A stretch of DNA of 64,000 nt from Vulcanimicrobiota bacterium (GTDB lineage: Bacteria > Vulcanimicrobiota > Xenobia > Xenobiales > JADMJV01): positions 192,001 through 256,000 of the forward strand of contig JBFWNU010000003.1 in NCBI GenBank assembly GCA_050250895.1, given 5' to 3'. Positions 6,543 through 52,579 of the stretch are shown piece by piece (the first letter of the stretch is position 1; each line of letters opens with the position of its first letter). The translations under genes and the position numbers were made by a program. The notes under the pieces are model-generated. The model saw only the letters and a program-made list of their open reading frames with translations. It did no database searches and was not told the origin of the DNA.

Positions 6543-6563
6543 AGCGGCCTCTCTGGCCGCTTT
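6543..6563 (+). terminator. Hairpin after esterase, possible weak terminator (copy 1)
   Basis: AGCGGCC-tctct-GGCCGCT followed by TT, 5 bp after the stop codon. Confidence 0.4.
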
Positions 6564-9217: not shown

Positions 9218-9223
9218 CTGGGA

Positions 9224-9232
9224 ACTATAGCA
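9224..9232 (-). promoter_or_regulatory. Extended -10 element (TG-C-TATAGT) of the pilin operon, probably leaderless, copy 1
   Basis: TGCTATAGT lies 6 nt before GTG 9217, with no Shine-Dalgarno in between. Confidence 0.5.
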
Positions 9233-9237
9233 CATTC

Positions 9238-9817: not shown

Positions 9818-10302
9818 GGTGGCTCATCTGTATTCTCTTGGCGCTGGCCGCGCCGGGTTGGGCCCAACTGCGCGACCTGGACGGAGCGACCCATTCGGTG
9901 GCCGGGCTGGCCGCCGGGCAGAAAGCCACGGTGTTGGTGGTGTGGTGCAGTCGCTGTCACAGCTGCCGGGGCGTCGAGAACGATCTGGCCGCCTTCTCGC
10001 GCGACGGAGTCAGGCTGTTTGCGGTCGACCCGCATCCAGCCGACGACGCCCAGCGAGTGCGCTCGTTTCTGGCCGAGCAGGGCCTGAGTCTCGAGGTCTT
10101 GCTCGACTCTGACCAGAGCTTTCTGCGCCAGTATCAGATCGACCGCACCACCACCGCCCTGGTCTTCGACCAGACTGGAAAGCTTCGCTACTTCGGCCCC
10201 TTCCAAGACTATGCGGCGGAAGCCGTCGACGAGGTCCTGGGCGGGCAAGAGGTTACGGTGTCGACTCGTCCATTGCAGGGGTGCCCGATTCCTCGCCCTT
10301 AG
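9814..10302 (+). CDS. Exported thioredoxin-fold redoxin, copy 2
   Basis: Same translation as 4080..4568. Confidence 0.8.
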   Translation: MRWLICILLALAAPGWAQLRDLDGATHSVAGLAAGQKATVLVVWCSRCHSCRGVENDLAAFSRDGVRLFAVDPHPADDAQRVRSFLAEQGLSLEVLLDSDQSFLRQYQIDRTTTALVFDQTGKLRYFGPFQDYAAEAVDEVLGGQEVTVSTRPLQGCPIPRP

Positions 10303-10378
10303 GATAAGTGGACCCATTCGGGCCATTTCTAGGGCCATGCGCAGGAACCCCTCCGGACTGCGGGAAGAACGGTATTCG

Positions 10379-11539
10379 ATGAACTTCGTTTATCTGTCCC
10401 CCCATTTTCCCCCGAATTACCAGGCCTTTTGTATCGAGCTGCGTTTGCAGGGGGCGAATGTGCTGGGTCTGGCCGAGGCTCCGTATGATTCTCTCTCGCC
10501 CCGTTTGCGCAACGTCTTGACCGAGTATTATCGGGTCGACGACATGCACGACTATGATCAGCTGGTGCGGGCGTTGGGCTATTTCACGCACCAGTACGGC
10601 AAAATCGACCGGCTCGAATCGCACGCCGAGTACTGGCTCGAGACCGAGGCCAGGCTGCGCACCGACTTCAACATCACCGGTCTGCGCGCCCACGACCTGC
10701 CCACCATGAAGCGCAAGTCGCTGATGAAGCAGAAGTTCATCGAGGCCGGCGTCGAGGTGGTTCGCGGCGAGGTCGCCCGCGATCGCAATCACGCCCTCAA
10801 GATCGCTAAGAAGCTGGGCTTTCCGCTGGTGGCCAAGCCCGACATCGGGGTGGGAGCGGCCGGAACTTTTCGTTTCGACGATGCCGACGCTTTGAGCGCG
10901 TTCTACGAGCAGAGCCATCCTCACGACTACATCCTCGAGCAATACATCGACGGCGTGTTGACCAGCTTCGATGGCCTGGTCGACCGCGATGGCAAGCCGG
11001 TGTTGCTGGCCTCGCACGTGTTCTCGGACGGAATCATGGACGTGGTCAGCCAGGACCTCGACATGTTTTACTACTCCGAGCGCGAGCTGCCCCAGGACCT
11101 CGAGCAGGCCGGCCGGGCGGTGCTGGCCGCCTATGGCCTGACCGAACGATTCTTCCATTTCGAGTTCATCCGTCGCCACAGCGACCAGAAGCTGGTCGGC
11201 CTCGAGGTCAACATGCGCCCGCCGGGAGGGTTGACCACCGACATGTTCAACTTCGCCAACGACATCGATATCTATCGCCAGTGGGCCCGAGTGGTAGTGG
11301 GCAAGTCGTTCGAACCCGATCCGGCCCGGCCGTTTCATTGCTGCTACATCGGTCGCAAGGACAACCGCACCTACCGCCACGACCACGATCAGGTGTTGGC
11401 CCGGGCGGGCGACTTGCTGTGCCACGAGGAGCGGGTCCAATCGGTCTTTCGGGGGGCCATCGGGGATCACGGCTATCTGCTACGTTCACCCCAATTGAAC
11501 GACTTGCTAGAGGTAGCCAACTACGCTTTGGAGAGCTAG
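10379..11539 (+). CDS. ATP-grasp domain protein, copy 2
   Basis: Same translation as 4645..5805. Confidence 0.85.
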   Translation: MNFVYLSPHFPPNYQAFCIELRLQGANVLGLAEAPYDSLSPRLRNVLTEYYRVDDMHDYDQLVRALGYFTHQYGKIDRLESHAEYWLETEARLRTDFNITGLRAHDLPTMKRKSLMKQKFIEAGVEVVRGEVARDRNHALKIAKKLGFPLVAKPDIGVGAAGTFRFDDADALSAFYEQSHPHDYILEQYIDGVLTSFDGLVDRDGKPVLLASHVFSDGIMDVVSQDLDMFYYSERELPQDLEQAGRAVLAAYGLTERFFHFEFIRRHSDQKLVGLEVNMRPPGGLTTDMFNFANDIDIYRQWARVVVGKSFEPDPARPFHCCYIGRKDNRTYRHDHDQVLARAGDLLCHEERVQSVFRGAIGDHGYLLRSPQLNDLLEVANYALES

Positions 11540-12271
11540 ATGTACGAAACCCATCGCTGGTGGAGCCCCCACCTGGGGCAAGACATGGAATTTCGGGTCT
11601 ACGGCCATGCTGGCAAGCCCGCCATCGTCTTCCCTTCGCAAGAGGGGCGTTTCTTCGAGTATCACGACTTCGGCATGGTCGAGGCGGTCAAGCCGTGGCT
11701 CGACCAGGGCCGGTTGCGCCTGGTCACGGTCGATGGCATCGACGGCCAGAGCTGGCTTAACAACGACATTCATCCTCACCATCGCGCTTTGCGGGCTCAC
11801 GCTTACGACGCCTACATCATGAACGAGATCGTGCCGTTCGTCGAAGCCATGGCTCCCGATCAGGGCATCATGCTCACGGGTTGCTCGATGGGTGGTTACC
11901 ACTCGGCCAACGTCTTTTTCCGCCACCCCGGCCGCTTCGACACTTTGATCGCCATCAGCGGAGTCTATCGGCTGATGCTGTTCATTGGCGACTACATGGA
12001 CGAGGAGGTCTACTTCCACGTGCCCCTGGCCTACCTGCCCAACCTGCACGACCCGGCGGCGCTCGAGGCTATGCGCCGAGCCCGCATCGTGGTGGTGGTG
12101 GGTCAGGGAGCCTGGGAGCACGACATGGTCCACGACACCCGCGCCCTCGAGCAGATCCTCCAGTCCAAGAACGTCCCGGCCCGCTTTGACTATTGGGGCC
12201 ACGATGTCGACCACGACTGGCCCTGGTGGCGCAAGATGATGCCCCACTTCCTGACCGAACTGGGCATCTAA
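11540..12271 (+). CDS. Putative esterase, copy 2
   Basis: Same translation as 5806..6537. Confidence 0.85.
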   Translation: MYETHRWWSPHLGQDMEFRVYGHAGKPAIVFPSQEGRFFEYHDFGMVEAVKPWLDQGRLRLVTVDGIDGQSWLNNDIHPHHRALRAHAYDAYIMNEIVPFVEAMAPDQGIMLTGCSMGGYHSANVFFRHPGRFDTLIAISGVYRLMLFIGDYMDEEVYFHVPLAYLPNLHDPAALEAMRRARIVVVVGQGAWEHDMVHDTRALEQILQSKNVPARFDYWGHDVDHDWPWWRKMMPHFLTELGI

Positions 12272-12276
12272 CCCTG

Positions 12277-12297
12277 AGCGGCCTCTCTGGCCGCTTT
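12277..12297 (+). terminator. Hairpin after esterase (copy 2)
   Basis: Same as 6543..6563. Confidence 0.4.
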
Positions 12298-12442
12298 CAA
12301 CCTCGGCATGAGGCTGGGGTGTAAAGTACCGAGCTTCGGGTTCTGCCCGTGGCGCGGACGAGGTGGGACCGCAAACCATTGTCAATTTGCCTCTTTGGAT
12401 ATCAAGAAGATGTCATGTGAGGAGCGGTTTGTCCACTTCGGA

Positions 12443-12997
12443 TTATTTGAAGGGCAATTGGATGCTGGTCGTGGTTTGCGACGTCTGGTCGCGGCTCTGG
12501 CCCGAAGCTCCGCGGATGGTGGTGCTGCCTTCGATGGTGGCGGTCACCACCGTGTCGGACAGGCGGTCGACCTCGAAGCTGCTGATTTGCCGTCCCAGGA
12601 TTCGCTGGGGCGCGGCGCCATAGACACTTTCCAGCACCAGCGTCTCGGGGCCGGCCACCTGACGGATGCGAAAGAGTTCATAAACGGGGCTGCGCGGATC
12701 GAAGGGAGTGGCCGGGTCCATCAGCTCGGCCGGGGCACAGAAGATGACCTCAGAAGCGGTAGCGCCTACTCCAGGAGCATAGATCGCGGTCTGGATTTCG
12801 CTGGGGGCGACCGCCGAGCGCAAGATCAGGCTGCTGCGTTTGGTGGCTTCGCGCAATTGGATCTCCATCTCGACTCGCTGCGTGCCCTGATGGCTGGAAG
12901 CGATGAAGCCTCTGAGGGCAAAGGCGAACATGGCTCCGATGATGCTCAAGAGAGCGACCGACACCAGCAGTTCAGCGATGGTAAAGCCTCGCCTCAT
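12443..12997 (-). CDS. Type IV pilin/pseudopilin, copy 2
   Basis: Same translation as 6709..7263. Confidence 0.8.
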   Translation of the reverse strand: MRRGFTIAELLVSVALLSIIGAMFAFALRGFIASSHQGTQRVEMEIQLREATKRSSLILRSAVAPSEIQTAIYAPGVGATASEVIFCAPAELMDPATPFDPRSPVYELFRIRQVAGPETLVLESVYGAAPQRILGRQISSFEVDRLSDTVVTATIEGSTTIRGASGQSRDQTSQTTTSIQLPFK

Positions 12998-13416
12998 GGA
13001 GCCCGATGCAATCCTTTGAGAGTCACCCCGTGCTCGACGCCTTTACTTTCCCAATAGAGATTGACCGTGACTTCGAAGAGAAGATAGCCGTAGTTGGCGG
13101 GATTGGTGTCCTGTCGAACCATCTGGAGGTTGCGGGTGTAGCCGGTGCCGGCCGGAAAATTGGCCGTGAAGGGAGCGGCCTCGAGGGCCACGCGAGCGTT
13201 GATGGGGTCATTGATAGGAGCCACCTCGGGAAGGTTGCCGACCCGAACCAGATCGAGCACCTGTCGCGCCACACCCAGGGCTTCATCGGTCTTGGCCGCC
13301 TGCTGGGCGCCGCGAAAAGCCGAGATGATCACTCCCAGCAAAGCCAGCAGCACCAGGCCAAGCACGGCCACGGCCACGATGGTTTCGAGCAGACTCAGGC
13401 CACGCGGCGATTTCAC
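12994..13416 (-). CDS. Type IV pilin/pseudopilin, copy 2
   Basis: Same as 7260..7682. Confidence 0.8.
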   Translation of the reverse strand: MKSPRGLSLLETIVAVAVLGLVLLALLGVIISAFRGAQQAAKTDEALGVARQVLDLVRVGNLPEVAPINDPINARVALEAAPFTANFPAGTGYTRNLQMVRQDTNPANYGYLLFEVTVNLYWESKGVEHGVTLKGLHRAP

Positions 13417-14951
13417 AGCGGCGCCTCGTGCCAATAGCGGATACTGAGGTCGCTGCCGGCCGTGGTGGGAAAGCGCGGCGGCGGTTCGTTAGCTAGCGTC
13501 GCATCATAGATGATGTTGGGCGTGCCGTAGCCGTTCAGGCCACCCATGCCGGCCAGGGTGGTCCCGTCCGCCGGATTGAACAGGTTGTAGTCGGGAGTGT
13601 GTCCGCTCGAGATGCCGCCATAGATGGCCATGCGTCCCGGGGCGCTGGTGGTGGCATTCTGCACCGAAAGCCGGTCGCGGGCCATGATGGTGGCATAGAG
13701 CGAGAGAGGATCGGTCGAGTTGCGAGGGATGAGAGCGGTGTTGCCGGTGATCTCGACCCGATTGGCCACGATGCCGAGTCGATCGCTGGTCGAGGTGGGC
13801 TTGCTGCCATCCGGGGTGTCGGCGCGCAAGATGTCGCCGGTGATGACGATGTTCTTCAGAGCGGCGTGGTCGACCGCCACCGTGTGGGCGTTCTTGTTGG
13901 TGCCCGAGAAGCTGGCGATGTTGCCGTTAGAGAAGATGACTCCGGTGCCCATCCCGGGCACGGTGACAGGCGCACCAGAAGGCGGAGTGACGATGCGCGT
14001 GCTCGAGACGGAGTCCTCTTCGACGGTGGTCGTCTGACCGGCCTGAACGATGGTGAGGACGAAGTTGCCCGAGCCGTTCACGTTCATGGTCATGGCATCG
14101 ACATCGCCATCGATAAAGACTCCGCCGGCGGGGTTGACGGTCACACCGGCGGGAGGGGCCGGAGGCGGGTTGCCGCCCCAGGCGGCCGAGGCCTGGGCGA
14201 TGGCGCTGGTGGGCATGGGAATGGGAGCAACGCCTGCTTGCACCTCGCTGAGGCCGCCGGTCACCAGGCGGTCGTACCCGTCCCCGTACGAATACGGCGC
14301 GTTGGAACTCGAGTAGTAGTGGATGCCATCGGGGCTGCTGGCATCTACGCCTGAGCTGGTGATCCGCCCATCGATGGCCGGTGTCGCCGGAGCAGGCCCG
14401 GTGAAATAGCTCTGACTGATGTACATCCGCAACACGCCGTTGTGATGAACCGGGCCCTCGCTCTTCCAGCCCTGGCCGATGACGACATCCCAAAGCCCGC
14501 CCGAGGACAGGTCGGTGAATTCTCCGAACTCGGCGAAGCTCTGGCCGGCCTGGACCCAGGCCACGATCTGCCAGCGATCGCCGCCATCGCGCGAGGCCCG
14601 CGAGGTCAGGCGATAGAGACGAATGGTGTCGATGCCGTTGGGTGGCGTTTGGGGGTCGGCCTCGATCTGGCAAGACCAGTCCCAGTTGCCCAGGCTGCCG
14701 GTGCGCACCGGCGAGGGCGTGACCGTGTTGCACGGTTCGCCAGCGTTGGCCAGGGTGTGAGCGATCCAGGCCATCGAATCGCGCACGCCCGCATCGGCGG
14801 CCAGCGACGCCTCGGTGTCGATGCGATTCTTGGTGGCCGCCGCCAGGTCGGTGGGCACCACCAGCATGAAGCCCGCGGCCAGGCCCGTCAACAGGAGAAC
14901 TCCCAGCAGCGCCACCATCATCGCGGCGCCTCGTCGTGAAATTGATACCAC
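13413..14951 (-). CDS. PilX-like protein, copy 2 (native upstream context)
   Basis: Same as 7679..9217. Confidence 0.75.
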   Translation of the reverse strand: MVSISRRGAAMMVALLGVLLLTGLAAGFMLVVPTDLAAATKNRIDTEASLAADAGVRDSMAWIAHTLANAGEPCNTVTPSPVRTGSLGNWDWSCQIEADPQTPPNGIDTIRLYRLTSRASRDGGDRWQIVAWVQAGQSFAEFGEFTDLSSGGLWDVVIGQGWKSEGPVHHNGVLRMYISQSYFTGPAPATPAIDGRITSSGVDASSPDGIHYYSSSNAPYSYGDGYDRLVTGGLSEVQAGVAPIPMPTSAIAQASAAWGGNPPPAPPAGVTVNPAGGVFIDGDVDAMTMNVNGSGNFVLTIVQAGQTTTVEEDSVSSTRIVTPPSGAPVTVPGMGTGVIFSNGNIASFSGTNKNAHTVAVDHAALKNIVITGDILRADTPDGSKPTSTSDRLGIVANRVEITGNTALIPRNSTDPLSLYATIMARDRLSVQNATTSAPGRMAIYGGISSGHTPDYNLFNPADGTTLAGMGGLNGYGTPNIIYDATLANEPPPRFPTTAGSDLSIRYWHEAPL

Positions 14952-14957
14952 CTGGGA

Positions 14958-14966
14958 ACTATAGCA
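14958..14966 (-). promoter_or_regulatory. Extended -10 of pilin operon, copy 2
   Basis: TGCTATAGT 6 nt before GTG 14951. Confidence 0.5.
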
Positions 14967-15007
14967 CATTCTCACGGTAGATGTCGGGGTCGTGAGCGAG
15001 AAGTGTC

Positions 15008-21815: not shown

Positions 21816-22430
21816 GTGGTGGAATATGAAAGCTTACGCGCGTGTGCCCTGGCAGGTGCCCTTACCGAGGACGATTGGCGATCCATTCGCAGGCAGGCTC
21901 GCCAGGGTGACGTTGGGGCCGAGTTTCTCCTGGGCTTTGCCGACGTTTCGCCGAGAACGCGCCGCAAGTGGCTGACTCGGGCCGCCGACCACGGCCACGC
22001 CGAGGCCTTCTTTCTCTTGCATGGTGGCTATCCTATTCACAACGCGGGCGGCTGGCTCGAGCGCTCGGCCGAGCGAGGTTGCGCCGAGGCCCAATCCGCG
22101 CTCGGGTGCTATTACGCCTGGGAGCCGAATCGCGATGAGGTGAAAATGCGTTATTGGTATGGCCAGGCCGCTCTCCAGGGTGGTGGAGTGGCGATGTATG
22201 AATTTGGCTTTAGCCTGTTGCTGGGCGAAGGTGGGCCGGCCGACCCCGAGGGCGCGGTGGCCTGGCTCGAAAAGGCCGCCGCCACCGATGCTCACACGGC
22301 AGAAGAGGCGCGGGGCTTGTTGGGTGATGTGCTCAGCGACGGCCTTTACGGTGTCGCTCGCGACCCTGAGCGGGCGGAGTATTGGAGAGCCCCTCACTTC
22401 CGGCCGGAAGTGGTGAGCAAGTGGGGATAG
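21816..22430 (+). CDS. Sel1-like repeat protein
   Basis: WLTRAADHGHAEA, WLERSAERGCAEAQSALG, WYGQAALQG, AVAWLEKAA. Confidence 0.8.
   Translation: MVEYESLRACALAGALTEDDWRSIRRQARQGDVGAEFLLGFADVSPRTRRKWLTRAADHGHAEAFFLLHGGYPIHNAGGWLERSAERGCAEAQSALGCYYAWEPNRDEVKMRYWYGQAALQGGGVAMYEFGFSLLLGEGGPADPEGAVAWLEKAAATDAHTAEEARGLLGDVLSDGLYGVARDPERAEYWRAPHFRPEVVSKWG
22396..22411. repeat. Perfect 16-bp palindrome ACTTCCGGCCGGAAGT (GGCC type)
   Basis: Read directly; extends to 18 bp as CACTTCCGGCCGGAAGTG. Confidence 0.9.
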
Positions 22431-23122: not shown

Positions 23123-24445
23123 ATGTCTCTTTCCACGCTTGTTTCCAGCCTGCGTCAACTCGGCCCCGAGCTGCTGCATCAGTGCAACCAGGCCGTCCGC
23201 CACGAACTAGCTCGCAGCGAGTGGACCATGGCCGCCCACCTGCTGGCCACCGAACGGACCGGACTGCATCGCAAGAAGGGTTATGGCGACGTGCTCGGCT
23301 ATGCCGAGAAGTTGCTCGACCTGCCACGCTACAAGGCCTGCGAGTTGCTGCGGGTGGCGCGAGCGTTCGAGCTCATGCCTGACCTCTCCGAGGCCTTTCG
23401 CACGGGCGAAATCGGCTGGACCAAGGTGCGCGAGATCACGCGAGTGGCCACTCCCAAGACCGAAGCGACCTGGCTTGAACGGGCTCGCCAGCACGACGCC
23501 GACACAGTGGCCCGCATGGTCTCGGTGTCGCCCACCGAGTATAAGCGGGGCAAGGCGCTCGAAGCCGCACGAGAAGCTGGGCAGAGTGTGCCCGAGCAGG
23601 CAAACGCGCCCGAGGTGATCCCGCAGCTGATCAACCTGACGCTGCGGTTTACGCCCGAGCAGTATGCGGTCTTCGAACAGGCTATCAGCCTGGCCCGAGC
23701 CCGGGCGGGCAAGCGGCTCAGCCGAGAGGTCGCTCTGGTGGCTCTGTCAGAAGCGACCCTGGCGCAGGCCGACAGTCGCAGCCAGGTTAGACATCAGGTG
23801 CTGATCCAGCTCGATCCGTTGAGCGGCAAGGGTTTCTACGACACCGAACGCGGGCCACTGCCGGCCCCGCAGCGAGTGGTCGACGAGGCGCTGGCCTCGG
23901 GACCGGCCGTGGTCGAGGGTGAGCAACTTGAACCCCCGCTGCCGGTGAAAACCGGGCCTCGCCAGGCGATCCCGGTGAAGGAATACCGGGTGGTGTTCGC
24001 CCGGGCCCGGGGGCGGTGCGAGAATTGTGGGTGCAAAGGCGGACCGCTGCATGTCCACCATGTTCGCCCGCGCTCTCGGGGCGGTGGCAACCGGGCATGC
24101 GAATTGAGGTTGCTGTGTCCTGGTTGTCATCGGGCCAGTCACGACCACGACTTCGCCACCGACGCCGGCTGGCGGGCGGCCAGAGAGGCGGCCACTTCCG
24201 GCCGGAAGTCAGGGCCGGCCGCGCAGCAAGTGGAGGTCACCGAATTCGTGCCAGAGATAGCCATGCTCGATGGCGGAGGCGTAGTCGCGAGCCAGTCGCT
24301 CGCGGCCGGCTATGGCCTCGAGCATGGCCAGGTGGCTGGCTTTGGGCTCGTGAAAGCCGGTGAGCAGGTCGTCGACCACGGCCAGGGGGCGGTCGGGAGT
24401 GATGACCAGCTCGGTCCAGCCGCTCGGGGGGCCGGCGTGGGCTGA
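23123..24445 (+). CDS. DUF222-like domain plus HNH endonuclease-like protein (paralogue 1)
   Basis: Start moved to MSLSTL (GGAGG RBS, matches paralogue 2). AFRTGEIGWTKVREITRV; CENC...HVHHVRPRSRGGGN...LLCPGCH. The last ~78 codons are antisense to the QueA-like gene. Confidence 0.85.
   Translation: MSLSTLVSSLRQLGPELLHQCNQAVRHELARSEWTMAAHLLATERTGLHRKKGYGDVLGYAEKLLDLPRYKACELLRVARAFELMPDLSEAFRTGEIGWTKVREITRVATPKTEATWLERARQHDADTVARMVSVSPTEYKRGKALEAAREAGQSVPEQANAPEVIPQLINLTLRFTPEQYAVFEQAISLARARAGKRLSREVALVALSEATLAQADSRSQVRHQVLIQLDPLSGKGFYDTERGPLPAPQRVVDEALASGPAVVEGEQLEPPLPVKTGPRQAIPVKEYRVVFARARGRCENCGCKGGPLHVHHVRPRSRGGGNRACELRLLCPGCHRASHDHDFATDAGWRAAREAATSGRKSGPAAQQVEVTEFVPEIAMLDGGGVVASQSLAAGYGLEHGQVAGFGLVKAGEQVVDHGQGAVGSDDQLGPAARGAGVG
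24194..24209. repeat. Perfect GGCC-type palindrome at the end of the HNH homology region
   Basis: ACTTCCGGCCGGAAGT; its last base overlaps the QueA-like stop codon (24209..24211). Confidence 0.9.
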
Positions 24446-25117
24446 CTCGAGGGCTCGCACCACGGTGGTTCCGACCGCGATGACGCGGCGGGCTCGGCGG
24501 GCAGCCTGCAGGGTGCGTTCGGGGACGGAGTAGTATTCGGGATAGGGCGGCTCGGGGTTCTCGAGCGAAGACACGCCGGTGTGAAGGGTGATGGGGCTCA
24601 GGGCTACGCCCTTTAGCACCAGCCGGGCCAGCAAAGCGGGAGTGAAGGCGCGGCCGGCCGAGGGCATTTCGGCCGAGCCGGGATGGCGGGCGAAGACCGT
24701 CTGGTAGTAATCGAGGGGCCAGTCGCCTTCGAGGTAGGCGTAGCGAATGGGACGTCCCCAGCGGTGCAGGTAGTCCAGGTCGACGCCTACGCGGGCTAGC
24801 TGCAGGCGCTGCGAGCCGCGGTAGGGACCGAGCAGTTCGAGGGTGGTGTGGGGCAGGGAGTGGTCGGGGCCGCGGGGCTCGACCACCCACAGGTCGGGGG
24901 CCAGCTGGGCCGAGAAGTGGATCTGGCCGACCGCGGCCGGGAGGGTGGCCGAGTCGTTGTAGACGATCAGGTCGCCGGGTTCGAGCACCTCGGGTAGGTC
25001 GCGAAAGAGCAGATGGCGTCCGTCAGCTAGCAAGCGCACCTGGTCGCGAGCCAGGCCGCGGGCTTCGGGGGGCTGGCGGGCCTCGAGGCGGGTGGGCAGT
25101 TGGAAGTCGAGCGTCAT
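24209..25117 (-). CDS. QueA-family SAM:tRNA ribosyltransferase-isomerase-like protein
   Basis: LEPGDLIVYNDSATLPA, YQTVFARHPGSAEMPSAGRAFT, ITLHTG, AVGTTVVRALES, YLWHEFGDLHL. A divergent subgroup, so no symbol is given. Confidence 0.85.
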   Translation of the reverse strand: MTLDFQLPTRLEARQPPEARGLARDQVRLLADGRHLLFRDLPEVLEPGDLIVYNDSATLPAAVGQIHFSAQLAPDLWVVEPRGPDHSLPHTTLELLGPYRGSQRLQLARVGVDLDYLHRWGRPIRYAYLEGDWPLDYYQTVFARHPGSAEMPSAGRAFTPALLARLVLKGVALSPITLHTGVSSLENPEPPYPEYYSVPERTLQAARRARRVIAVGTTVVRALESAHAGPPSGWTELVITPDRPLAVVDDLLTGFHEPKASHLAMLEAIAGRERLARDYASAIEHGYLWHEFGDLHLLRGRP

Positions 25118-32538: not shown

Positions 32539-35454
32539 CTAGCGGCCCCTGGTGACGACGAAGGGGCCGGCCAGGGCGGCCGCGATCGAGGGTCCGTGCT
32601 CTTGGCGCAATCTGGTGAGCCACTGGCGTTGGACTTGATTGAGCGCCTCGGTCGGGTCTTTGTCGTTCATGCCGCGATAGAAATCGAGCATGAAATCGGC
32701 CGTCTCCTGGTCGGCCACCGGCCACAGGGTGAAAACCAGATTATCGCAGCCCGACTGCAGAAAGCCCCGGCGAAGGCCCAGTACTCCTTCGCCCTTGCGG
32801 GCTTCGCCCAGGCCGGTATCGCAGGCCGAGAGCACCACCACCCTGGTGCCCTCGAGATCGAGAGCCGAGACCTCCTGGGCTGTTAGCACGCCGTCTGTCT
32901 CGGGGGCCGGAAAGACCCCGTTCTGCCAGTCGTCGAGGGTCGATTCGGCCCCGGCCAGGGCCAGGCCGCTGCGGGTCATGGGGTTCTCGCCATAGCGACT
33001 GGATAAGAAGAATCCGTGGGTAGCCAGATGGAGAATTCCAGGAGAGTGAAGGCCGGCCACGGTCTTCTCTTGAGCCTTTTCGTCTAGCACCAGGCGAGCC
33101 TGGGGGAGCACTTTCTGCAGGGCCTGGCACTCGGCTCCACTGCCGGGTAGGGGCGCCAGCGAGATAGCGTGGCTGCCAGTCGAACGGGTCGCTCCAGGCC
33201 GGCGATAATCGGGGGCTCCAAGCAAGAACGGCGTTTCGCCGGGCCGGGTCTCGGCGCTCTCGACCAGGTCGCGGCCGCTGGAGAGGTAGGTCAGGTCGTA
33301 TCGCTCCGAGAGAAACTGCGCGTCGGGGCTGACCAGGGTGGCGAACGAGACGAAGTTGAGTTCGCCGTCAGGGCTGAGGTAGAGGTGCTTGACCTCGGTC
33401 GGCAAGACTTCTTGCACCGGAGCCCAGACGGTGTCGTAGGCCGTACGCAGTTCACCCGCTTCCGGGGCTTGAGCCAGACTGGGCCGGGTGGCCCGGCTCG
33501 AGCGACCGCCCATGCGCATTCGCTGACGGTAGCCGCGAATCACGCTCTCCACCTCGCGCGCCTCGCCCAGTTCGACCCAGCGGGTCGACTCGCGCGTCAC
33601 TACCAGCGCGCCGTAGCGCTTCTCGCTGCGATTGTTGCCGAAGTAGTAACCGTGATAAAGAAACTCCACTAGAGCTGTGTCGGGCGGCAGAGCCTGGCGC
33701 ACCTGGTCGGGAGTCACGGTGAAGGCCGCCCGGCTTCGGGGCGCCCCCACCAGCCGGGCCAGTTGCGCTTGGGCCTGGTCGAACTGCTCTTGCAGTTGCT
33801 GCCTTTCCTCGTCGCTTCGCTTGCCCAGCATTTCTTGCTTGAGCCGCTTGAGCATGGTCAGCAGGGCCTGGGCCTCGGGAGCGCTTGCGGCCTGGGCCAG
33901 CCGATAGTCCTCGGCAATCGAGTCGAGCACGACCCCTTTGAAACGCAGGGCCGTCTGTAGCAACTCCTCCGGCTGCTCGAGCGAAGCCAAGAGACCGTAG
34001 GGCACCAGCTTCTCGCGAAAGGCCAGGCGTTGGCGCTCTGAGGTAAAGCTAAACACCTCTTGGAGACGCTCGAAGAGTGCCCTGTCGGCTTTCAAGGCAT
34101 ACTCCTTCGCATTTTCGCGATCACCCTGGTCAATGGCCAGATAAGCCAGGTTATTGTAGGTGATAGAGCGCGTCTCGCTGTCGCCTTCGGCCAGCGCCTG
34201 CTCGAAGTGGCGCTGAGCTTTGTCATACTCGCCGATCTGCTGGTAGGCCGAAGCCAGGTTGCCCTCGGCCGTGGCCCGCGCCTTCTCGGCTTTGAACAGA
34301 GGTAGGGCCTCCTCTAGCCAGGCGACAGCCTCCTTTCCCTTGTTGTTCTCGAGCAGTTCGACCGACAGGTTGCTCAGGGCCTCGGCCGTTTCAACCGGGT
34401 CCAGCCCGGCCGTCGCGCGGGTGCGCTTGAGGGCCTCCCGCAGCAGCTTCTCGGCCTCGTCATGCCGGCCCAGGCTGCTGTAGGCCTGGGCCAGATTGGT
34501 GAGGCTGGTGCAGGTCAGAGGATGGTTGGGGCCCAGCGTCTTTTCGTGAATAGCGTTGGCCTGGCGAAAATAGGTCACCGCCTGCTCGGCGTCGCCGATC
34601 TGGCGATAGAGCAATCCCATGTCGTTGAGGGGATTGGCCAGGTCTGGGTGATCGGGAGCCGCTTCGCGGAACAGGTCCAGCGCTTTGCGGTAGATGGCCT
34701 CGGCTCTGGCGAATTCCATGCGGTTGAGGTACAACCCGGCCTGCATTCGCATGGCCCGCGACAAGAGCCTGAGATCCGGCTCGGGATCGGTCTCGTAAAA
34801 GCGCACCGCCTCGCCAAAGAGTTCCTCGGCCCGGTCGGTCTCGCCCACCGCCTCTAGAAGCTGGGCCAACGATTGCTGGGCCCGCACCCGGGCGTTGGAG
34901 CCAAAGCCTAGCTTGTGGATGGCTTCTTCTAGCATGGGTCGGGCCTCGGCGTGGCGCCCCTGTCGAGTCAAAACATTGGCCAGACCCACCATGATGTCGA
35001 TGGTCTCGGGCTGGTAATGATCCGGGTCAAGACCCTCATAGACCTCGAAGGCCTTGCGAAAAGCTTGTTCGGCTTCGGGATAGAGGGCTCGGTGATTGAG
35101 ACACAGGGCCAGGTTCTTGCGCACGTTGGCGGTATACTGGTGGTCCGGACCCAGGCGCGGCGCCTCGATATAGATCTTGAGGGCCTTGCGAAAGCCCAGT
35201 TCGGCTCGAAAGTCGTCGCCCAGGTCCATCTGCAGCAGAGCCTGGTTGTTGGTGGTCACGCCCACGGCCATGATGTCTCCGCTGGCTTCGGCCGCTTTGA
35301 CCGCCTGGTCGGCGACCGCGAGGGCCTCTCGATAAAGCCCATCCTGGCGCAAGGTGGCCACCTGTTTGGACAACTCGCGCCAATCGGTCTGGGCCCAGAC
35401 AGGCAGGGTTAGCAGGCAGAACAGAAGCAGTCTTTTCACCCATCGCCATTCCAC
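32539..35454 (-). CDS. Secreted TPR-repeat plus CHAT (caspase-fold) protease
   Basis: Signal peptide; TPRs (LGPNHPLTCTSLTNLA); LSPDGELNFVSF, HLATHGFF, VLSACDTG (His/Cys dyad intact). Confidence 0.9.
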   Translation of the reverse strand: MEWRWVKRLLLFCLLTLPVWAQTDWRELSKQVATLRQDGLYREALAVADQAVKAAEASGDIMAVGVTTNNQALLQMDLGDDFRAELGFRKALKIYIEAPRLGPDHQYTANVRKNLALCLNHRALYPEAEQAFRKAFEVYEGLDPDHYQPETIDIMVGLANVLTRQGRHAEARPMLEEAIHKLGFGSNARVRAQQSLAQLLEAVGETDRAEELFGEAVRFYETDPEPDLRLLSRAMRMQAGLYLNRMEFARAEAIYRKALDLFREAAPDHPDLANPLNDMGLLYRQIGDAEQAVTYFRQANAIHEKTLGPNHPLTCTSLTNLAQAYSSLGRHDEAEKLLREALKRTRATAGLDPVETAEALSNLSVELLENNKGKEAVAWLEEALPLFKAEKARATAEGNLASAYQQIGEYDKAQRHFEQALAEGDSETRSITYNNLAYLAIDQGDRENAKEYALKADRALFERLQEVFSFTSERQRLAFREKLVPYGLLASLEQPEELLQTALRFKGVVLDSIAEDYRLAQAASAPEAQALLTMLKRLKQEMLGKRSDEERQQLQEQFDQAQAQLARLVGAPRSRAAFTVTPDQVRQALPPDTALVEFLYHGYYFGNNRSEKRYGALVVTRESTRWVELGEAREVESVIRGYRQRMRMGGRSSRATRPSLAQAPEAGELRTAYDTVWAPVQEVLPTEVKHLYLSPDGELNFVSFATLVSPDAQFLSERYDLTYLSSGRDLVESAETRPGETPFLLGAPDYRRPGATRSTGSHAISLAPLPGSGAECQALQKVLPQARLVLDEKAQEKTVAGLHSPGILHLATHGFFLSSRYGENPMTRSGLALAGAESTLDDWQNGVFPAPETDGVLTAQEVSALDLEGTRVVVLSACDTGLGEARKGEGVLGLRRGFLQSGCDNLVFTLWPVADQETADFMLDFYRGMNDKDPTEALNQVQRQWLTRLRQEHGPSIAAALAGPFVVTRGR

Positions 35455-35573: not shown

Positions 35574-36083
35574 GTGGTCGTGCGCGTAACCCTCGTCGAA
35601 ATCATCTCGGCCCTGTCGTTGCTGGCGGTAGGGGCTGCCATGCTGGCCCCTCGCCCCGGTCCGGCCGATGCTCACCAGCGCGAAGCGGCCGAGTGTCGTC
35701 GCCACATCAGCCAGCTGGACTCGGCCCTGTCCCAGTATGCCAGCGACCACGACGGCGACTATCCGGGCAAGCTCGATGGGTTGACCCCCGAGTATCTCAA
35801 GACTCTGCCCACCTGCCCCCAGACCCTCAAAGGCTATGACTACGAGGTGACCGCCTCGCCCGGGGCGGCCGGCCGGGTCATGCCCCACTACCACGAGCCT
35901 CCGACGGTCGATCTGTCCCCGGCCTTGAAGGCCTACGTCGACCGCGAAGGCCACTATCCCGCCAGCCTCGGTGAGATTCCCGACCTGCCCACTTGCCCGC
36001 TGGGCTCGCCCTTCTACTACGAGGTCTATAACGGCACCTACACCCTCAAATGCAAAGGCAAACACCCGGACCCGACCCTGTAG
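35574..36083 (+). CDS. Pilin/GspG-like small protein
   Basis: RVTLVEIISALSLLAV N-terminus; two YP..L....LPTCP modules. Confidence 0.6.
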   Translation: MVVRVTLVEIISALSLLAVGAAMLAPRPGPADAHQREAAECRRHISQLDSALSQYASDHDGDYPGKLDGLTPEYLKTLPTCPQTLKGYDYEVTASPGAAGRVMPHYHEPPTVDLSPALKAYVDREGHYPASLGEIPDLPTCPLGSPFYYEVYNGTYTLKCKGKHPDPTL

Positions 36084-36087
36084 TAGG

Positions 36088-38953
36088 CCGACTTCGGCGC
36101 GAGCCGCCAAGCTTAGACTGACTTCCAGGCTGGAAGTACTCGCTCGCCGCGGCGGACCGAAGGCTCAGCAGGTGTCGCCCAGCGCCGCGAGGGCTGGCAA
36201 AGCAGGCTGCAGTCGGCCGATGCCTCCGTTGCGTGCCGAGACTCCAGGCGGCGCCCCGCTTGGACTGACTTCCAGCTGGAAGTAGCCGCTCGCTCGCCGC
36301 GGCGGACCGAGGCTCGGCAGGTGTCGCCCAACGCCGTGAGGCTGTCTGGCAGAGCAGGCTGCATCCCGACTTCGGCGCGAGCCGCCAAGCTTAGACTGAC
36401 TTCCAGCTGGAAGTAGCCGTCGCCGCCGGCGGACCGAGGCTCAGCAGGTGTCGCCCAGCGCCGTGCGGGCTGGCAAAGCAGGCTGCATCCCGACTTCGGC
36501 GCGAGCCGCCAAGCTTAGATTGACTTCCAGCTGGAAGTACTCGCTCGCCGCGGCGGACCGAGGCTCGGCAGGTGTCGCCCAGCGCCGTGAGGGCTGGCAA
36601 AGCTGGCTGCAGTCGGCCGATGCTTCCGTCGCGAGCCGCCAGCCGCTCGCCGCCGCGGCGGACCGAGGCTCGGCAGGTGTCGCCCAACGCCGTGAGGCTG
36701 TCTCGCAAAGCTGGCTGCAGTCGGCCGATGCCTCCGTTGCGTGCCGAGACTCCAGGCGGCGCCAAGCTTAGATTGACTTCCAGCTGGAAGTAGCCGCTCG
36801 CCGCCGGCGGACCAGGGCTCGGCAGGTGTCGCCCCGCGCCGTGACGGATGGCATCTCGACTTCGGCGCGAGCCGCCAAGCTTAGACTGACTTCCAGCTGG
36901 AAGTAGCCGCTCGCTCGCCGCGGCGGACCGAGGCTCGGCAGGTGTCGCCCAACGCCGTGAGGCTGTCTGGCAGAGCAGGCTGCATCCCGACTTCGGCGCG
37001 AGCCGCCAGCTTAGACTGATTTCCAGCTGGAAGTACTCGCTCGCCGCGGCAGACCAAGGCTCAGCAGGTGTCGCTCTGCGCCGTGCGGGCTGGCAGAGCA
37101 GTTCTGCATCCCGACTTCGGCGCGAGCCGCCAAGCTTAGATTGACTTCCAGCTGGAAGTAGCCGCTCGCCGCTGGCGGACCAGGGCTCAGCAGGTGTCGC
37201 TCAGCGCCGTCTGTCTGGCAAAGCTGGCTGCAGTCGGCCGATGCTTCCGTCGCGAGCCGCCAAGCTTAGACTGACTTCCAGCTGGAAGTAGCCGCTCGCC
37301 GCCGCGGCGGACCAGGGCTCAGCAGGTGTCGCCCAGCGCCGTGAGGGCTGGCAAAGCTGGTTGCAGTCGGCCGATGCTTCCGTCGCGAGCCGCCAGCCGC
37401 TCGCCGCCGCGGCGGACCGAGGCTCGGCAGGTGTCGCCCAACGCCGTGAGGCTGTCTCGCAAAGCTGGCTGCAGTCGGCCGATGCCTCCGTTGCGTGCCG
37501 AGACTCCAGGCGGCGCCAAGCTTAGATTGACTTCCAGCTGGAAGTAGCCGCTCGCCGCCGGCGGACCAGGGCTCGGCAGGTGTCGCCCCGCGCCGTGACG
37601 GATGGCATCTCGACTTCGGCGCGAGCCGCCAAGCTTAGATTGACTTCCAGCTGGAAGTACTCGCTCGCCGCGGCGGACCGAGGCTCGGCAGGTGTCGCCC
37701 AACGCCGTGAGGGCTGGCAAAGCTGGCTGCAGTCGGCCGATGCTTCCGTCGCGAGCCGCGAGATGCCAAGCCCCGCCCGCTTAGACTGACTTCCAGCTGG
37801 AAGTAGCCGCTCGCCGCCGGCGGACCAGGGCTCAGCAGGTGTCGCCCAGCGCCGTGAGGGCTGGCATCCCGACTTCGGCGCGAGCCGCCAAGCTTAGACT
37901 GACTTCCAGGCTGGAAGTACTCGCTCGCCGCGGCGGACCGAAGGCTCAGCAGGTGTCGCCCAGCGCCGCGAGGGCTGGCAAAGCAGGCTGCAGTCGGCCG
38001 ATGCCTCCGTTGCGTGCCGAGACTCCAGGCGGCGCCCCGCTTGGACTGACTTCCAGCTGGAAGTAGCCGCTCGCTCGCCGCGGCGGACCGAGGCTCGGCA
38101 GGTGTCGCCCAACGCCGTGAGGCTGTCTGGCAGAGCAGGCTGCATCCCGACTTCGGCGCGAGCCGCCAAGCTTAGACTGACTTCCAGCTGGAAGTAGCCG
38201 TCGCCGCCGGCGGACCGAGGCTCAGCAGGTGTCGCCCAGCGCCGTGCGGGCTGGCAAAGCAGGCTGCAGTCGGCCGATGCCTCCGTTGCGTGCCGCGAGA
38301 TGCCAAGCCCCGCCCGCTTAGATTGACTTCCAGCTGGAAATACTCGCTCGCCGCGGCGGTCCGAGGCTCAGCAGGTGTCGCCCAGCGCCGTGCGGGCTGG
38401 CAAAGCTGGCTGCAGTCGGCCGATGCTTCCGTCGCGAGCCGCGAAATGCCAAGCCCCGCCCGCTTAGACTGACTTCCAGCTGGAAGTAGCCGCTCGCCGC
38501 CGGCGGACCAGCGCTCGGCAGGTGTCGCCCAGCGCCGTGAGGGCTGGCAGAGCAGGCTGCATCCCGACTTCGGCGCGAGCCGCCAAGCTTAGACTGACTT
38601 CCAGCTGGAAGTAGCCGTCGCCGCCGGCGGACCGAGGCTCAGCAGGTGTCGCCCAGCGCCGTGCGGGCTGGCAAAGCAGGCTGCATCCCGACTTCGGCGC
38701 GAGCCGCCAAGCTTAGATTGACTTCCAGCTGGAAGTACTCGCTCGCCGCGGCGGACCGAGGCTCGGCAGGTGTCGCCCAGCGCCGTGAGGGCTGGCAAAG
38801 CTGGCTGCAGTCGGCCGATGCTTCCGTCGCGAGCCGCCAGCCGCTCGCCGCCGCGGCGGACCGAGGCTCGGCAGGTGTCGCCCAACGCCGTGAGGCTGTC
38901 TGGCAAAGCAGGCTGCAGTCGGCCGATGCTTCCGTTGCGGGCCGCGAGATGCC
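36088..38953. repeat. Array of about 22 mosaic direct repeats (113-147 bp) built around ACTTCCAGCTGGAAGT
   Basis: Cores counted by eye at 36121*, 36268, 36399, 36523, 36776, 36889, 37019*, 37144, 37274, 37530, 37643, 37789, 37902*, 38049, 38180, 38326*, 38472, 38597, 38721 (* = 1-nt variant). Three core-less units at ~36641, 37395, 38839. Confidence 0.96.
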
Positions 38954-39164
38954 GGTTCAAATGTTTTGGTATCCTAACATTTGCAAGGTGGAGGCGTTGA
39001 CTTCGAAGACCCGCCTGCCTGAACCAGGGCCCCCGGTCCTCAATAAGCGCTCTCTGGCATCCCCGCGCCAAATAGACTTGGAGAGTCATTTTCTACCCGA
39101 AACCCCTCCTCGTAGCCGTCTGTGAGTTGCGCCTCAAAGCCTGTAACCAAGCTGTTTTTCTGCG

Positions 39165-39193
39165 TTGATCCGGGTGGTCTTCTTGAGTAAAAT
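39165..39193 (+). promoter_or_regulatory. Sigma70-type promoter of HNH gene 2
   Basis: TTGATC-N17-TAAAAT; GGAGG RBS before ATG 39233. Confidence 0.6.
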
Positions 39194-39232
39194 AGGATCA
39201 TCCCTTGATTCTTCTTCTACTCGGAGGTCGGC

Positions 39233-40444
39233 ATGTCTTCAACTTTATCGGCACTTTCCCAGTCATTGCAACAACTTACTCACCAGGAACTACACCAGAG
39301 AAACTGCCAGACCAGCAAACGCTCCTTTGGCTGCGAATGGGACCTGGCCGCTCACCTGTTGGCCACCGAACGCAACGGGCTCTATCGACACATGGGCAGC
39401 GGCAGTGTGGTCGGCTACGCTGTGACCCACCTGAAGTTGCATCCTCAAAAGGCCGGCGAACTTCTGAGTTTAGCCAGGGTCTTCGAGCAACTCCCATTGA
39501 TCTCGGAAGCCTTTCGCGAGGGGAAGCTCTGCTGGAGCAAGGCCCGTGCTCTTAAGCGGATCACCACCCCCGAGAACGAGGCCGAGATGCTCGAGTTTGC
39601 CTTGAACAACAAGGCCCAGGCAGTCGAGCGCGCCGTGGCTCTGACTCCCACCCAGCATAAGCGTGGCCAGGCTTTGAAAGCGTCGCTCGAGGCTCGCCAG
39701 AGTCAGCCCGAACTCACCCAGGTCGAGCAACCCACAAAATCCGAGTCGGTGGCTTTACCGACCCCGGTTCCCGCGGTGCCCAAGTTGAGACAGGTCGTCT
39801 TGCTGATGACCCCCGAGCAGTATGCCGTCTACGAGCAAGCAAAGAGAATGGTCGAGGCCCGCCAGGGTAAGCGCGTCAGTAGAGAGACGGCGGTGACCGA
39901 GATGAGCAGGGCTTTACTCGGGTCGGCAGACAACCGCAGCAAAGTGCGACATCAGGTCATCGTGCACGTGAACGGTGAGACGGGCGAAGGCTTCTATGAT
40001 ACCGACCGGGGACTGTTGCCGGCCGAGGCCGAGGCCGTTGACGAGGCAATGAAGCAAACCGGCATCGTGGTGGCTTGTTCCCACAACACACTTCCAGCTG
40101 GAAGTAGCCGGTCGAAACTTCCGGCTGAAACTAGCCAGGCCGAACAGCTACCGCTACTGCCGAGTCAGCCCAAGGCCAGACCGGGTCTGCCGGTGGGGTT
40201 GGTGCGAGCGGTTTACGCCCGCGCTTTCGGTTGCTGTGAGCGATGCTCGTGCAGAGGCGGGAATTTGGTGATACACCACGTTCGTGCCTGGTCCGAAACC
40301 AGGCGACATCGGCTGGAAGACTTAGAGCTGCTATGTCCAAGTTGTCACGCCAGCGAGCACGAAGAAGACTTTGCGACTCGCACCGAGTGGAAAGCCGCCC
40401 GAGACGCCTCCGTTCGCCAACGCACCAGGTCACGCTCGCGGTGA
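39233..40444 (+). CDS. DUF222-like domain plus HNH endonuclease-like protein (paralogue 2)
   Basis: Colinear with paralogue 1 (AAHLLATER, TPEQYAV.EQA, VRHQV, GFYDT.RG). CERC...IHHVRAW...LLCPSCH. Confidence 0.87.
   Translation: MSSTLSALSQSLQQLTHQELHQRNCQTSKRSFGCEWDLAAHLLATERNGLYRHMGSGSVVGYAVTHLKLHPQKAGELLSLARVFEQLPLISEAFREGKLCWSKARALKRITTPENEAEMLEFALNNKAQAVERAVALTPTQHKRGQALKASLEARQSQPELTQVEQPTKSESVALPTPVPAVPKLRQVVLLMTPEQYAVYEQAKRMVEARQGKRVSRETAVTEMSRALLGSADNRSKVRHQVIVHVNGETGEGFYDTDRGLLPAEAEAVDEAMKQTGIVVACSHNTLPAGSSRSKLPAETSQAEQLPLLPSQPKARPGLPVGLVRAVYARAFGCCERCSCRGGNLVIHHVRAWSETRRHRLEDLELLCPSCHASEHEEDFATRTEWKAARDASVRQRTRSRSR
40090..40105. repeat. AGCT-type palindrome inside HNH gene 2
   Basis: ACTTCCAGCTGGAAGT followed by AGCCG as in the array units; a degenerate ACTTCCGGCTGAAACT follows at 40117. 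Confidence 0.9.
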
Positions 40445-40481
40445 GCGAAGGACCTCGCACCGGCGCTTCGAAATCAGCAGG

Positions 40482-40898
40482 ATGCGACTTCAGGGGATAC
40501 TGCTGATAGTGCTTGTGGCTGTGGGTTGCATGGGGAAGTCGCCGCCTCAGTTCTCGCACCAGCAGGTACGCGAGAATCTGGTAACGCGGATAGCCCAGGT
40601 AAAGGGCCTGATGGACGAGACCCCCGCGCTTGAGGCGCGCTTAGAGGCTCTGAAGAAAGAGGTTCCAGCCGAGCGCCGACCGACCCCCGAGCAAGTCCAG
40701 GCTCAGGAGCCGGACGACTACGAGCGCCGCTTTGGCCTGGGATATCCCTACGAACTCGACTGGCATCTCTATTCGCCCGCAGAGCAGAAAGAGCTAAGGC
40801 AGCTGCAAACCGACCTCGACCGACTGGGTCAGGAGTCCGAGCGCTTTTTCCAACTCGAGGCCGAACTCAAAGTGTGGGAGCAGGCGAAGCAGCCGTGA
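40482..40898 (+). CDS. Putative lipoprotein
   Basis: MRLQGILLIVLVAVGC lipobox-like; helical body. Confidence 0.6.
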   Translation: MRLQGILLIVLVAVGCMGKSPPQFSHQQVRENLVTRIAQVKGLMDETPALEARLEALKKEVPAERRPTPEQVQAQEPDDYERRFGLGYPYELDWHLYSPAEQKELRQLQTDLDRLGQESERFFQLEAELKVWEQAKQP

Positions 40899-41371
40899 GA
40901 AAGCTGGTCGAGCTGCTGGCAGTCTTGTTAGTGGTCGCGGTCGTGGTGTCGAGCGGTCGACCAGAGCGAGAAGAAGAGTATGTCATCCACTCGACCCCGT
41001 CGGTCAAAGTGATCGAGTTTCTGTCGGCCACTTATCCCGAGGTTCATTTCGCGCGGCACCCGAGCCGCCGGGGTCTGGTCGCCGTGGGTAGCCGTGAAGA
41101 GATCGCCAGGGTCCGCAGCACGCTTCACCAACTCGAGGTCCCCGAACCCCCGCCTCCCCCCGCCCGCGAGTTTCTGAGGGTGAAGCCCGGCGAGCTCGAG
41201 ACGACGAGGGAGCGCCTCCAGGCCGCCGTTCCCACCCTGAAAGTGAGGGTCGAGCCCCGCCTGAATTGTCTACTCCTGGAGGGGGAACCGGCGGATGTCA
41301 GGCGGGCCAGAGAGCTGGTGGACCTGTCCGGCCGGCCTGTGGAGCCTTCGCGCAGCAGCGCCGCTGACTGA
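40895..41371 (+). CDS. Membrane-anchored protein with two NolW/secretin-N-like modules
   Basis: GTGA overlap start; RGLVAVGSREEIARVRSTLHQLE and RLNCLLLEGEPADVRRARELV. Confidence 0.55.
   Translation: MRKLVELLAVLLVVAVVVSSGRPEREEEYVIHSTPSVKVIEFLSATYPEVHFARHPSRRGLVAVGSREEIARVRSTLHQLEVPEPPPPPAREFLRVKPGELETTRERLQAAVPTLKVRVEPRLNCLLLEGEPADVRRARELVDLSGRPVEPSRSSAAD

Positions 41372-46252: not shown

Positions 46253-52579
<6,327 letters not shown>

Follow-up and report, generated by a model that had tools for sequence, protein, structure and literature searches.

Why a 2.9-kb tract of repeats stands directly upstream of a nuclease gene, and whether the two are connected, are the questions raised by a locus in a Vulcanimicrobiota bacterium (assembly GCA_050250895.1). 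The stretch of DNA that we analyzed, hereafter the window, is 64,000 nucleotides long (positions 192,001 to 256,000 of contig JBFWNU010000003.1) and contains two genes with an HNH nuclease domain, HNH gene 1 and HNH gene 2, the second of which lies behind the repeats. We found that the region is a genuine noncoding tandem array of one ~130-nt unit in this assembly. By comparison with other loci, the palindrome that the unit carries was shown to fall in a gene-specific class of palindromes accompanying DUF222-HNH genes: each lineage of these genes appears to have its own perfect palindrome of 12 to 22 bp, placed upstream and again inside the gene or at its 3' end, and the array appears to be an extreme local amplification of the upstream site, with 19 copies here against the usual one to three. 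The explanation that we favor, at a probability of about 0.5, is that the array is the amplified upstream site of a palindrome that the nuclease would recognize, and that breaks and unequal recombination may have remodeled it.

The array and its palindrome

On a reading of positions 35800-39400, dense repetition opens four bases past the stop codon of an upstream open reading frame (ORF; 35574-36083) and closes at 38953 (Table 1). An nhmmer profile of the unit found 21 full and 2 partial copies between 36078 and 38948, with 23 of 23 matches on the plus strand, and the stop codon of that ORF falls within the first partial unit. The sole match of the profile beyond the array is at 40090-40125, inside HNH gene 2 (E 8.5e-4). 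An invariant 11-mer core, GCAGGTGTCGC, occurs 22 times from 36168 to 38871, and a 19-mer core pattern was matched 22 times against 0.19 expected, every time within the array. Tandem Repeats Finder, a check that a preliminary description of this DNA had suggested, reported periods of 124 and 366. By core counts, profile and repeat finder, the 2.9-kb array announced in that description is real, and its estimate of about 22 units in a single orientation holds.

Aligned to one another, the 22 units represent a single unit of ~130 nt with a few alternative indels (two head variants, an insert of 17-18 nt in two forms, and a 13-nt deletion in three units), and they comprise 17 distinct sequences with a mean column identity of 71%. 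The DNA between cores had been described as a shuffle of a few modules and not as unique spacer; it is indeed repeated, but the mosaic is indel variation of one unit together with exact block duplications. Cores are spaced 105, 112, 114, 116, 124, 126, 127, 132, 146, 147, or 149 nt apart, and because most of these spacings are not multiples of three, no reading frame is maintained from end to end, which rules out a coding repeat. Nine distinct ORFs of the array were looked up in the protein collection and none was present, and the minus-strand ORF at 37319-37720 had no homologue. Head to tail, noncoding, and variable through gain and loss of units, the array has the properties of a noncoding minisatellite. 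The pattern of block duplications could reflect an array that grows and shrinks via unequal recombination, and an assembler could also give such a pattern. The three short units of 105 nt are identical and all lie inside duplicated blocks, and therefore probably stem from one event; microhomology at this deletion of the 28-nt palindrome module is only 1 nt and was not taken as evidence of end joining. The unique leader between the array and gene 2 has no similarity to the unit, and comparison of the unit with the DNA 3' of gene 2 gave a best score of 23 against a null maximum of 26, indicating no terminal repeats.

Within the unit, ACTTCCAGCTGGAAGT forms a perfect 16-bp palindrome that is borne by 19 of the 22 units. 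With up to two mismatches allowed, this 16-mer was matched 20 times in the window against 0.01 expected: 17 matches lie in the array, one is at 40090, and two belong to a variant found at gene 1. A G is inserted at the center of the copies at 36121 and 37902, and those at 37019 and 38326 contain a single mismatch. The internal copy in gene 2, with its flanking bases, codes for LPAGSSRS in a variable linker ahead of the HNH domain, the 16-mer itself coding for LPAGS, and the clade of gene 2 numbers 14 proteins, of which 11 have this peptide unchanged and three differ from it by one residue. Gene 1, which stands 16 kb from gene 2, has four copies around it of a variant of its own, TTCCGGCCGGAA (22398, 22615, 23014, and 24196). 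Beyond the two HNH loci, neither the array palindrome nor the gene-1 variant has an exact match anywhere in the 64 kb. When the leaders of the two genes were aligned, only the ribosome-binding site and the start were shared.

The 3' end of gene 1 is unusual in its own right. Its ORF has no stop codon where homology ends (~24206) and continues for 237 nt into queA (24209-25117, minus strand), antisense to its 3' end, with the palindrome exactly at the convergent junction of gene 1 and queA.

Palindromes at homologous loci

Both genes of the window have the HNH domain of a DUF222-HNH (REP13E12-type) element. DUF222 (PF02720) matches residues 23-154 of the gene-2 protein with 21.0 bits, below the cutoff of 24.4, and is present in the precomputed annotation of its close relatives P0009, P0011, and P0012. 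The wider family is large, with 3617 clusters (50% identity) matching at E<=1e-3. From one scan of genome contigs with the HNH alignment we took 50 loci whose homologues are 23-57% identical over partial matches; their sources are Gemmatimonadota, Actinomycetota, Gammaproteobacteria, and Myxococcota, and the Vulcanimicrobiota relatives, which are 76-84% identical, are not among them. Gene windows of 2.5 kb were compared with control windows of the same loci, and a window was counted as positive if it held a perfect 12-mer palindrome at least twice. Such a repeated palindrome was present in 26 of 50 gene windows versus 2 of 231 control windows, and the number of different palindromes is at least eight (TTCCCGCGGGAA, TTTCCGCGGAAA, TCTCCGCGGAGA, ACTCCGCGGAGT, CCTCAGCTGAGG, ACCCACGTGGGT, CCCCACGTGGGG, and the two described above).

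The type of palindrome tracks the gene copy and not the host. Within one genome, locus L010 differs in this respect from L017, L019, and L024; L015 differs from L025 in another genome, as gene 1 does from gene 2 here. At 16 Gemmatimonadota loci, the motif VPAGT is coded by ACGTTCCCGCGGGAACGT or its 16-nt core, and the same palindrome lies upstream. In L015, VSAET is coded by CGTTTCCGCGGAAACG and that variant is found upstream as well, with TTTCCGCGGAAA at both sites. Upstream and internal sites co-vary, and MAFFT aligns the VPAGT/VSAET motif with the LPAGS of gene 2. Palindrome copies at the same locus have little in common beyond the core, and their flanks are unlike (8 loci of the 16 listed). 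Most loci have one upstream site; two are found in L002, L008, L023, and L037, and three in L006 and at gene 1 of the window.

Copies of the gene within a single genome bear on where the element begins. L017, L019, and L024, all from a Palauibacter genome, are 92-99% identical over ~1435-1470 bp. The similarity opens at the upstream palindrome or ~20 nt before it and ends near the stop codon, and the outer flanks are unrelated; the palindrome is therefore the left edge of a repeated element of ~1.45 kb. Units of this kind are multicopy in both settings, as the two paralogues in the window, with a third protein (P0020) listed on a contig of equal length, and as the ~1.45-kb copies in Palauibacter.

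Several loci show arrangements of their own. Upstream of a Granulosicoccaceae homologue (L006, 1315-1431), the core CCTCAGCTGAGG occurs twice with one degenerate copy, ~53 bp apart, and this cluster of sites is a miniature of the array in the window. Solo copies of the Gemmatimonadota palindrome with ~20 nt of conserved left flank lie ~9 kb from the HNH gene at two loci (L021, 19636-19670; L016, near 756) and may represent either empty targets or what is left of element ends. In L010 (around 10578 and 9684), the internal site is a hybrid in which the left half of one palindrome variant, TTCCCG, adjoins the right half of another, CGGAAA. Upstream of this copy is a perfect TTTCCGCGGAAA, and the other variant is found in three further copies in the same genome. 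Two Myxococcota loci have the HNH gene between inverted repeats of 330-420 bp, at 9160-9582 and 11348-11811 in L003 (up to 94-96% complementary) and at 9329-9668 and 11330-11774 in L038 (74-91% complementary), with two copies of a 24-40-bp palindrome at the 3' end of the gene.

Table 1. Features of the tandem array, the two HNH genes, and adjacent DNA (positions in the window)
Feature	Position	Strand	Description
Noncoding tandem array	36078..38953	+	Head-to-tail units, 21 complete and 2 partial, 105-149 nt, one orientation
Representative 124-nt unit	36444..36567	+	Core GCAGGTGTCGC, tail, head CGACTTCGGCGCGAGCCGCC, AAGCTTAGAYTG, palindrome, GC-rich segment, GGACCGAGGCTCR
Short 105-nt unit	36568..36672, 37322-37426, 38766-38870	+	Lacks exactly 28 nt, AAGCTTAGAYTG plus palindrome
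Exact block duplication, 400 bp	36088..36487 = 37869-38268	+	
Exact block duplication, 358 bp	36346-36703 = 38544-38901	+	
Exact block duplication, 278 bp	36608-36885 = 37362-37639	+	
ACTTCCAGCTGGAAGT, first exact copy	36268..36283		
Array palindrome starts 1-10	36121, 36268, 36399, 36523, 36776, 36889, 37019, 37144, 37274, 37530		
Array palindrome starts 11-19	37643, 37789, 37902, 38049, 38180, 38326, 38472, 38597, 38721		
Internal palindrome copy with 9 flanking bases	40090..40114	+	24/25 identical to array units
In-frame 27-nt tandem duplication	40090..40144	+	LPAGSSRSK / LPAETSQAE; 21-aa gap in gene 1 here
Leader, unique, 279 bp	38954..39232	+	Between array and HNH gene 2 start
Sigma-70-like promoter match	39165..39193	+	TTGATC, 17 nt, TAAAAT; consensus match only
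HNH gene 2, 403 aa	39233..40444	+	HNH at aa 335-377, PF01844 34.6 bits (cutoff 21.4)
Upstream ORF, 169 aa	35574..36083	+	Weak pseudopilin-like N terminus (TIGR01710, 21 bits vs cutoff 88.85)
HNH gene 1	23123..24445	+	45% identical to gene 2 over 395 aa; PF01844 32.6 bits (cutoff 21.4)
Gene-1 variant palindrome ACTTCCGGCCGGAAGT	22396..22411		~725 bp upstream of gene 1 ATG
Gene-1 variant core TTCCGGCCGGAA	22615..22626		~508 bp upstream of gene 1
Gene-1 variant core TTCCGGCCGGAA	23014..23025		~109 bp upstream of gene 1 ATG
Gene-1 variant palindrome	24194..24209		C-terminal end of gene 1, codes for TSGRK

Explanations for the array

We infer that the HNH protein itself recognizes the palindrome as its DNA site, probably in the form of a symmetric dimer, the perfect symmetry of the site being what suggests a dimer. 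In the explanation that we favor, the protein would bind or cut the palindromes of the array, and breaks followed by unequal recombination between neighboring units would expand and reshuffle it. Break-driven unequal recombination is the cause that we propose for the exact block duplications of 278-400 bp, and breaks at the sites may account for the palindrome-less unit and for the 1-nt insertion at the palindrome center. Features compatible with breaks, among which we also count the hybrid internal site of L010, are few and not independent of one another, and other readings of them are open. As a side effect, the array would compete for the HNH protein and soak it up. It would then be a by-product of the element's own activity and not a device with a selected function. 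An amplification product of the nuclease, likened to a bacterial interspersed mosaic element (BIME), was among the possibilities raised in the preliminary description; the link to the nuclease is supported by the 16-mer in gene 2, the four copies of the gene-1 variant, and the excess of palindromes at distant loci, whereas "BIME-like" is an analogy only. 

A broader version, which we offer tentatively, would make the DUF222-HNH genes widespread selfish site-specific nuclease elements, with a perfect palindrome, particular to each lineage, as recognition site in their own coding sequence and at the element edge, that spread or convert their paralogues via breaks there. The array would then be the first nuclease-built "site farm," a landing pad and sink at once.

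Several observations weigh against the favored explanation. A repeated palindrome is missing from 24 of the 50 distant loci, some of them on truncated contigs, and ~18 of the 26 positives come from one Gemmatimonadota clade and are not independent. The preliminary description had advised looking for arrays beside homologues elsewhere, and none of the 50 loci has a comparable noncoding array: the tandem repeats of >=200 bp at these loci number six, the period of each is a multiple of three, and none with three or more copies adjoins the gene. The amplification is so far unique among these loci. Within the array, the core GCAGGTGTCGC (22 of 22 units) is more conserved than the palindrome (19 of 22), and the explanation leaves this core unaccounted for. 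Because the internal palindrome codes for a conserved peptide, its conservation may be partly at the protein level. The last palindrome is ~430 bp from the promoter-like site, which is distant for an operator. The putative repair scars are single events that were copied with their blocks, and the 28-nt difference could equally be an insertion. Finally, the copy number comes from one assembly, which itself contains a perfect tandem duplication of 5734 bp.

The same arrangement could instead be a selected decoy or regulatory platform, that is, a multi-site sink or operator bank that titrates the HNH protein by uncut binding and so restrains a self-damaging nuclease, or autoregulates its gene, in the style of iterons with plasmid initiators. 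The 19 sites immediately precede the gene and share its orientation, upstream sites are found family-wide, and the further site within the gene would permit looping. The distance between the nearest palindrome and the promoter-like site argues against such a platform, however, as do the three units that have no site, the block duplications, which resemble neutral turnover, and the lack of such a bank at the other homologue loci examined. We consider it unlikely that the array was selected for this role.

A lower probability attaches to a neutral minisatellite that adjoins the HNH gene by chance, having formed from local DNA where the upstream gene ends, through slippage or unequal crossing-over. 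Homology of the first unit extends into the stop codon of the upstream ORF, as duplication in place predicts; exact block duplications are present, and the array has no sign of function in the form of a promoter, terminator, or RNA family. Chance adjacency is hard to reconcile with the 16-mer and its flank, which recur in the adjacent gene and elsewhere in the window only as the variant of gene 1, or with the same pairing of gene and palindrome in the paralogue and in distant homologues.

About equally improbable is an artefact of copy number, in which the unit is real and the array was inflated or put in the wrong order by the assembler. Exact internal duplicates of 400, 358, and 278 bp would fit this, as would the perfect 5734-bp duplication elsewhere in the window and the nature of the source, which, judged from the names of homologues, is a metagenome-assembled genome (MAG). 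On the other side, the array contains 17 distinct unit sequences whose variants are ordered and interpretable, and a protein of the window is listed on an 861-kb contig. Each copy within the 5734-bp duplication (3504-9237 = 9238-14971) holds an ATP-grasp gene together with several ORFs that had no match in Pfam, and the duplication either arose very recently or is an artefact of assembly.

The preliminary description had further proposed a repeat-unit RNA. Such an array of structured RNAs, whether guide-like, omega-RNA-like or small RNAs, would serve a nuclease whose HNH domain resembles those of IscB and Cas9, and that domain does score best against IscB models (NCBIfam, 26.9 and 48.1 bits with NF040563; PDB IscB chains, E 2.9e-9). 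Only the HNH part matches, however, far under the cutoff of 175 bits, and neither a RuvC nor a PLMP domain was detected. Rfam gave no match in the whole window at the gathering threshold, and at E<=1 in 35900-40600 it gave one chance-level match, not to the HEARO/omega-RNA family. A long stem with the palindrome at its tip had been drawn for the unit. Flank-to-flank pairing of this kind is indeed the minimum-energy fold of 16 of 19 units, but the hairpin is no more stable than with shuffled flanks (z +0.14 to +1.23 in 18 units and -1.07 in one). In the long stem, 86.7% of cells are paired versus 86.4% in shuffles, 175 of 500 shuffles reach the observed value, and one pair is changed on both sides. 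RNAalifold, which had been suggested as a check, returned three small local hairpins only, with compensatory change in 0 of 18 pairs, and folds of six units gave z from -1.70 to +1.39. Indels inside the proposed stem alter unit length, and no promoter- or terminator-like sites were found within the units. With no Rfam match, no covariation, and no excess stability, an RNA array is very improbable.

Least credible of all is an array of centromere or iteron type that a mobile replicon would use for its partition or replication, also put forward earlier: tandem units, each with a perfect 16-bp palindrome, resemble plasmid centromeres, but no ParA, ParB, Rep, or relaxase domain was found in 50 ORFs of the window searched with Pfam, cumulative GC skew climbs steadily with no turning point at the array, and the neighbors are chromosomal housekeeping and signaling genes.

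The genes around the array and known systems

HNH gene 2 is preceded by a single sigma-70-like consensus match, 212 bp past the end of the array and ~40 bp before the ATG at 39233, in agreement with the ~210 bp given in the preliminary description. Directly after the last unit is an A+T-rich inverted repeat (38958-38983; AAATGTT, 10 nt, AACATTT) in surroundings of 69% G+C. The closest counterparts of the HNH domain are in IscB, McrA, group II intron maturases, and Cas9, and only the HNH module matches. The first ~300 residues of the protein have no solved relative; in the ESM Atlas, the N-terminal 280 residues retrieved only DUF222-like hypothetical clusters, and PADLOC gave no match for gene 2. 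Homologues of 76-84% identity (P0002-P0013) are named as MAG proteins of Vulcanimicrobiota (Eremiobacterota), often two or three per contig. A tblastn search of a plasmid collection gave only weak partial matches, two for P0001 and one for the ORF of L043.

Besides the weakly pseudopilin-like ORF, the genes by the array code for a CHAT-TPR protein, a Secretin_N protein, and histidine kinases. A CHAT-protease protein of 971 aa with many TPR repeats (32539-35454) is on the opposite strand just upstream of ORF 35574..36083. Between the pseudopilin-like ORF and a small ORF for Secretin_N, which share a strand (35574-41371), lie the array and HNH gene 2, ~4.4 kb together, and these look as if they had been inserted into a secretion or pilus gene cluster. 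Farther on, a hybrid histidine kinase of 2108 aa (46253-52579) has 11 tandem HAMP domains, coded by a 276-nt repeat present in 10.8 copies (46687-49666) with 68-85% identity between copies.

Pfam detected no cas, par, rep, or transposase domain in any of the 50 ORFs, so that the earlier statement that cas genes are absent stands. A CRISPR array was rejected on this ground and because the DNA between cores is itself repeated and the 22 units align end to end. IscB with an omega-RNA was set aside on the scores and Rfam searches given above; the likeness to IscB and Cas9 is that they are the best-scoring relatives of the gene-2 HNH domain, and the difference is that this module alone is shared, with no RuvC and no omega-RNA/HEARO match.

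In repetitive extragenic palindromes (REPs) and BIMEs with their associated tyrosine transposases (RAYTs), a nuclease gene has short palindromes of its own class on either side; their type co-varies with the gene lineage, and they form clusters of few modules. Here too, gene and palindrome are paired by lineage, and the local cluster has few variants. The system itself was rejected, since the nuclease is an HNH and not a Y1/HUH enzyme, no Y1 domain was found in the 50 ORFs, and the palindromes are perfect, undispersed (confined to the two HNH loci in 64 kb), and in one orientation. Iteron and centromere arrays of plasmids are tandem units, each with one symmetric site of protein size, beside the gene of the binding protein. 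The array likewise has tandem palindromic units adjoining the gene of a presumed binding protein, and some titration may take place. Replication and partition genes are lacking here, however, and the units are long (105-149 nt) and variable by indels.

Minisatellites or variable-number tandem repeats, such as mycobacterial interspersed repetitive units, are head-to-tail intergenic repeats of ~100 nt in one orientation that gain and lose units; unlike them, the units here typically carry a perfect palindrome common to the adjacent gene. Homing endonucleases and HNH restriction enzymes are also relevant, the former being selfish nucleases with long specific sites, and symmetric sites suit a dimeric enzyme. 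In contrast to these, the presumed site is inside and beside the nuclease's own gene, and no intron, intein, or methyltransferase partner was seen among the 50 ORFs.

The closest comparison by domain content is REP13E12. In the sections consulted of a 2026 preprint on mycobacteria, its function is described as undefined and its loci as among the most frequent sites of gene conversion (PMC13061034). A passage in another paper links REP13E12 to HNH/DUF222 (PMC10589994), and the pairing of DUF222 with HNH is mentioned there and in passing elsewhere (PMC10589994, PMC3592412). The window shares the HNH domain, probably DUF222 (just below the cutoff in gene 2 and annotated in close relatives), and the multicopy state, and the repeated unit is 1.4-1.5 kb in the genomes examined; the window differs in that its proteins are distant relatives, with 24-49% identity to the more distant half of alignment A3. 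In the literature on DUF222-HNH and REP13E12 that was covered, which does not extend to subscription journals, we found no report of cognate palindromes or site arrays.

What is new here is that the 16-mer of the array lies inside the adjacent DUF222-HNH gene, and that the paralogue and distant homologues have palindromes of their own. If the link between gene and palindrome were false, the array would be an ordinary bacterial minisatellite. The DUF222-HNH family is very large and has no assigned function, and a lineage-specific palindrome that moves with the gene copy provides a concrete hypothesis for it, namely binding or cutting of that sequence by the protein. The array would then be a natural high-copy substrate, and a possible case of a nuclease shaping the tandem DNA next to its own gene.

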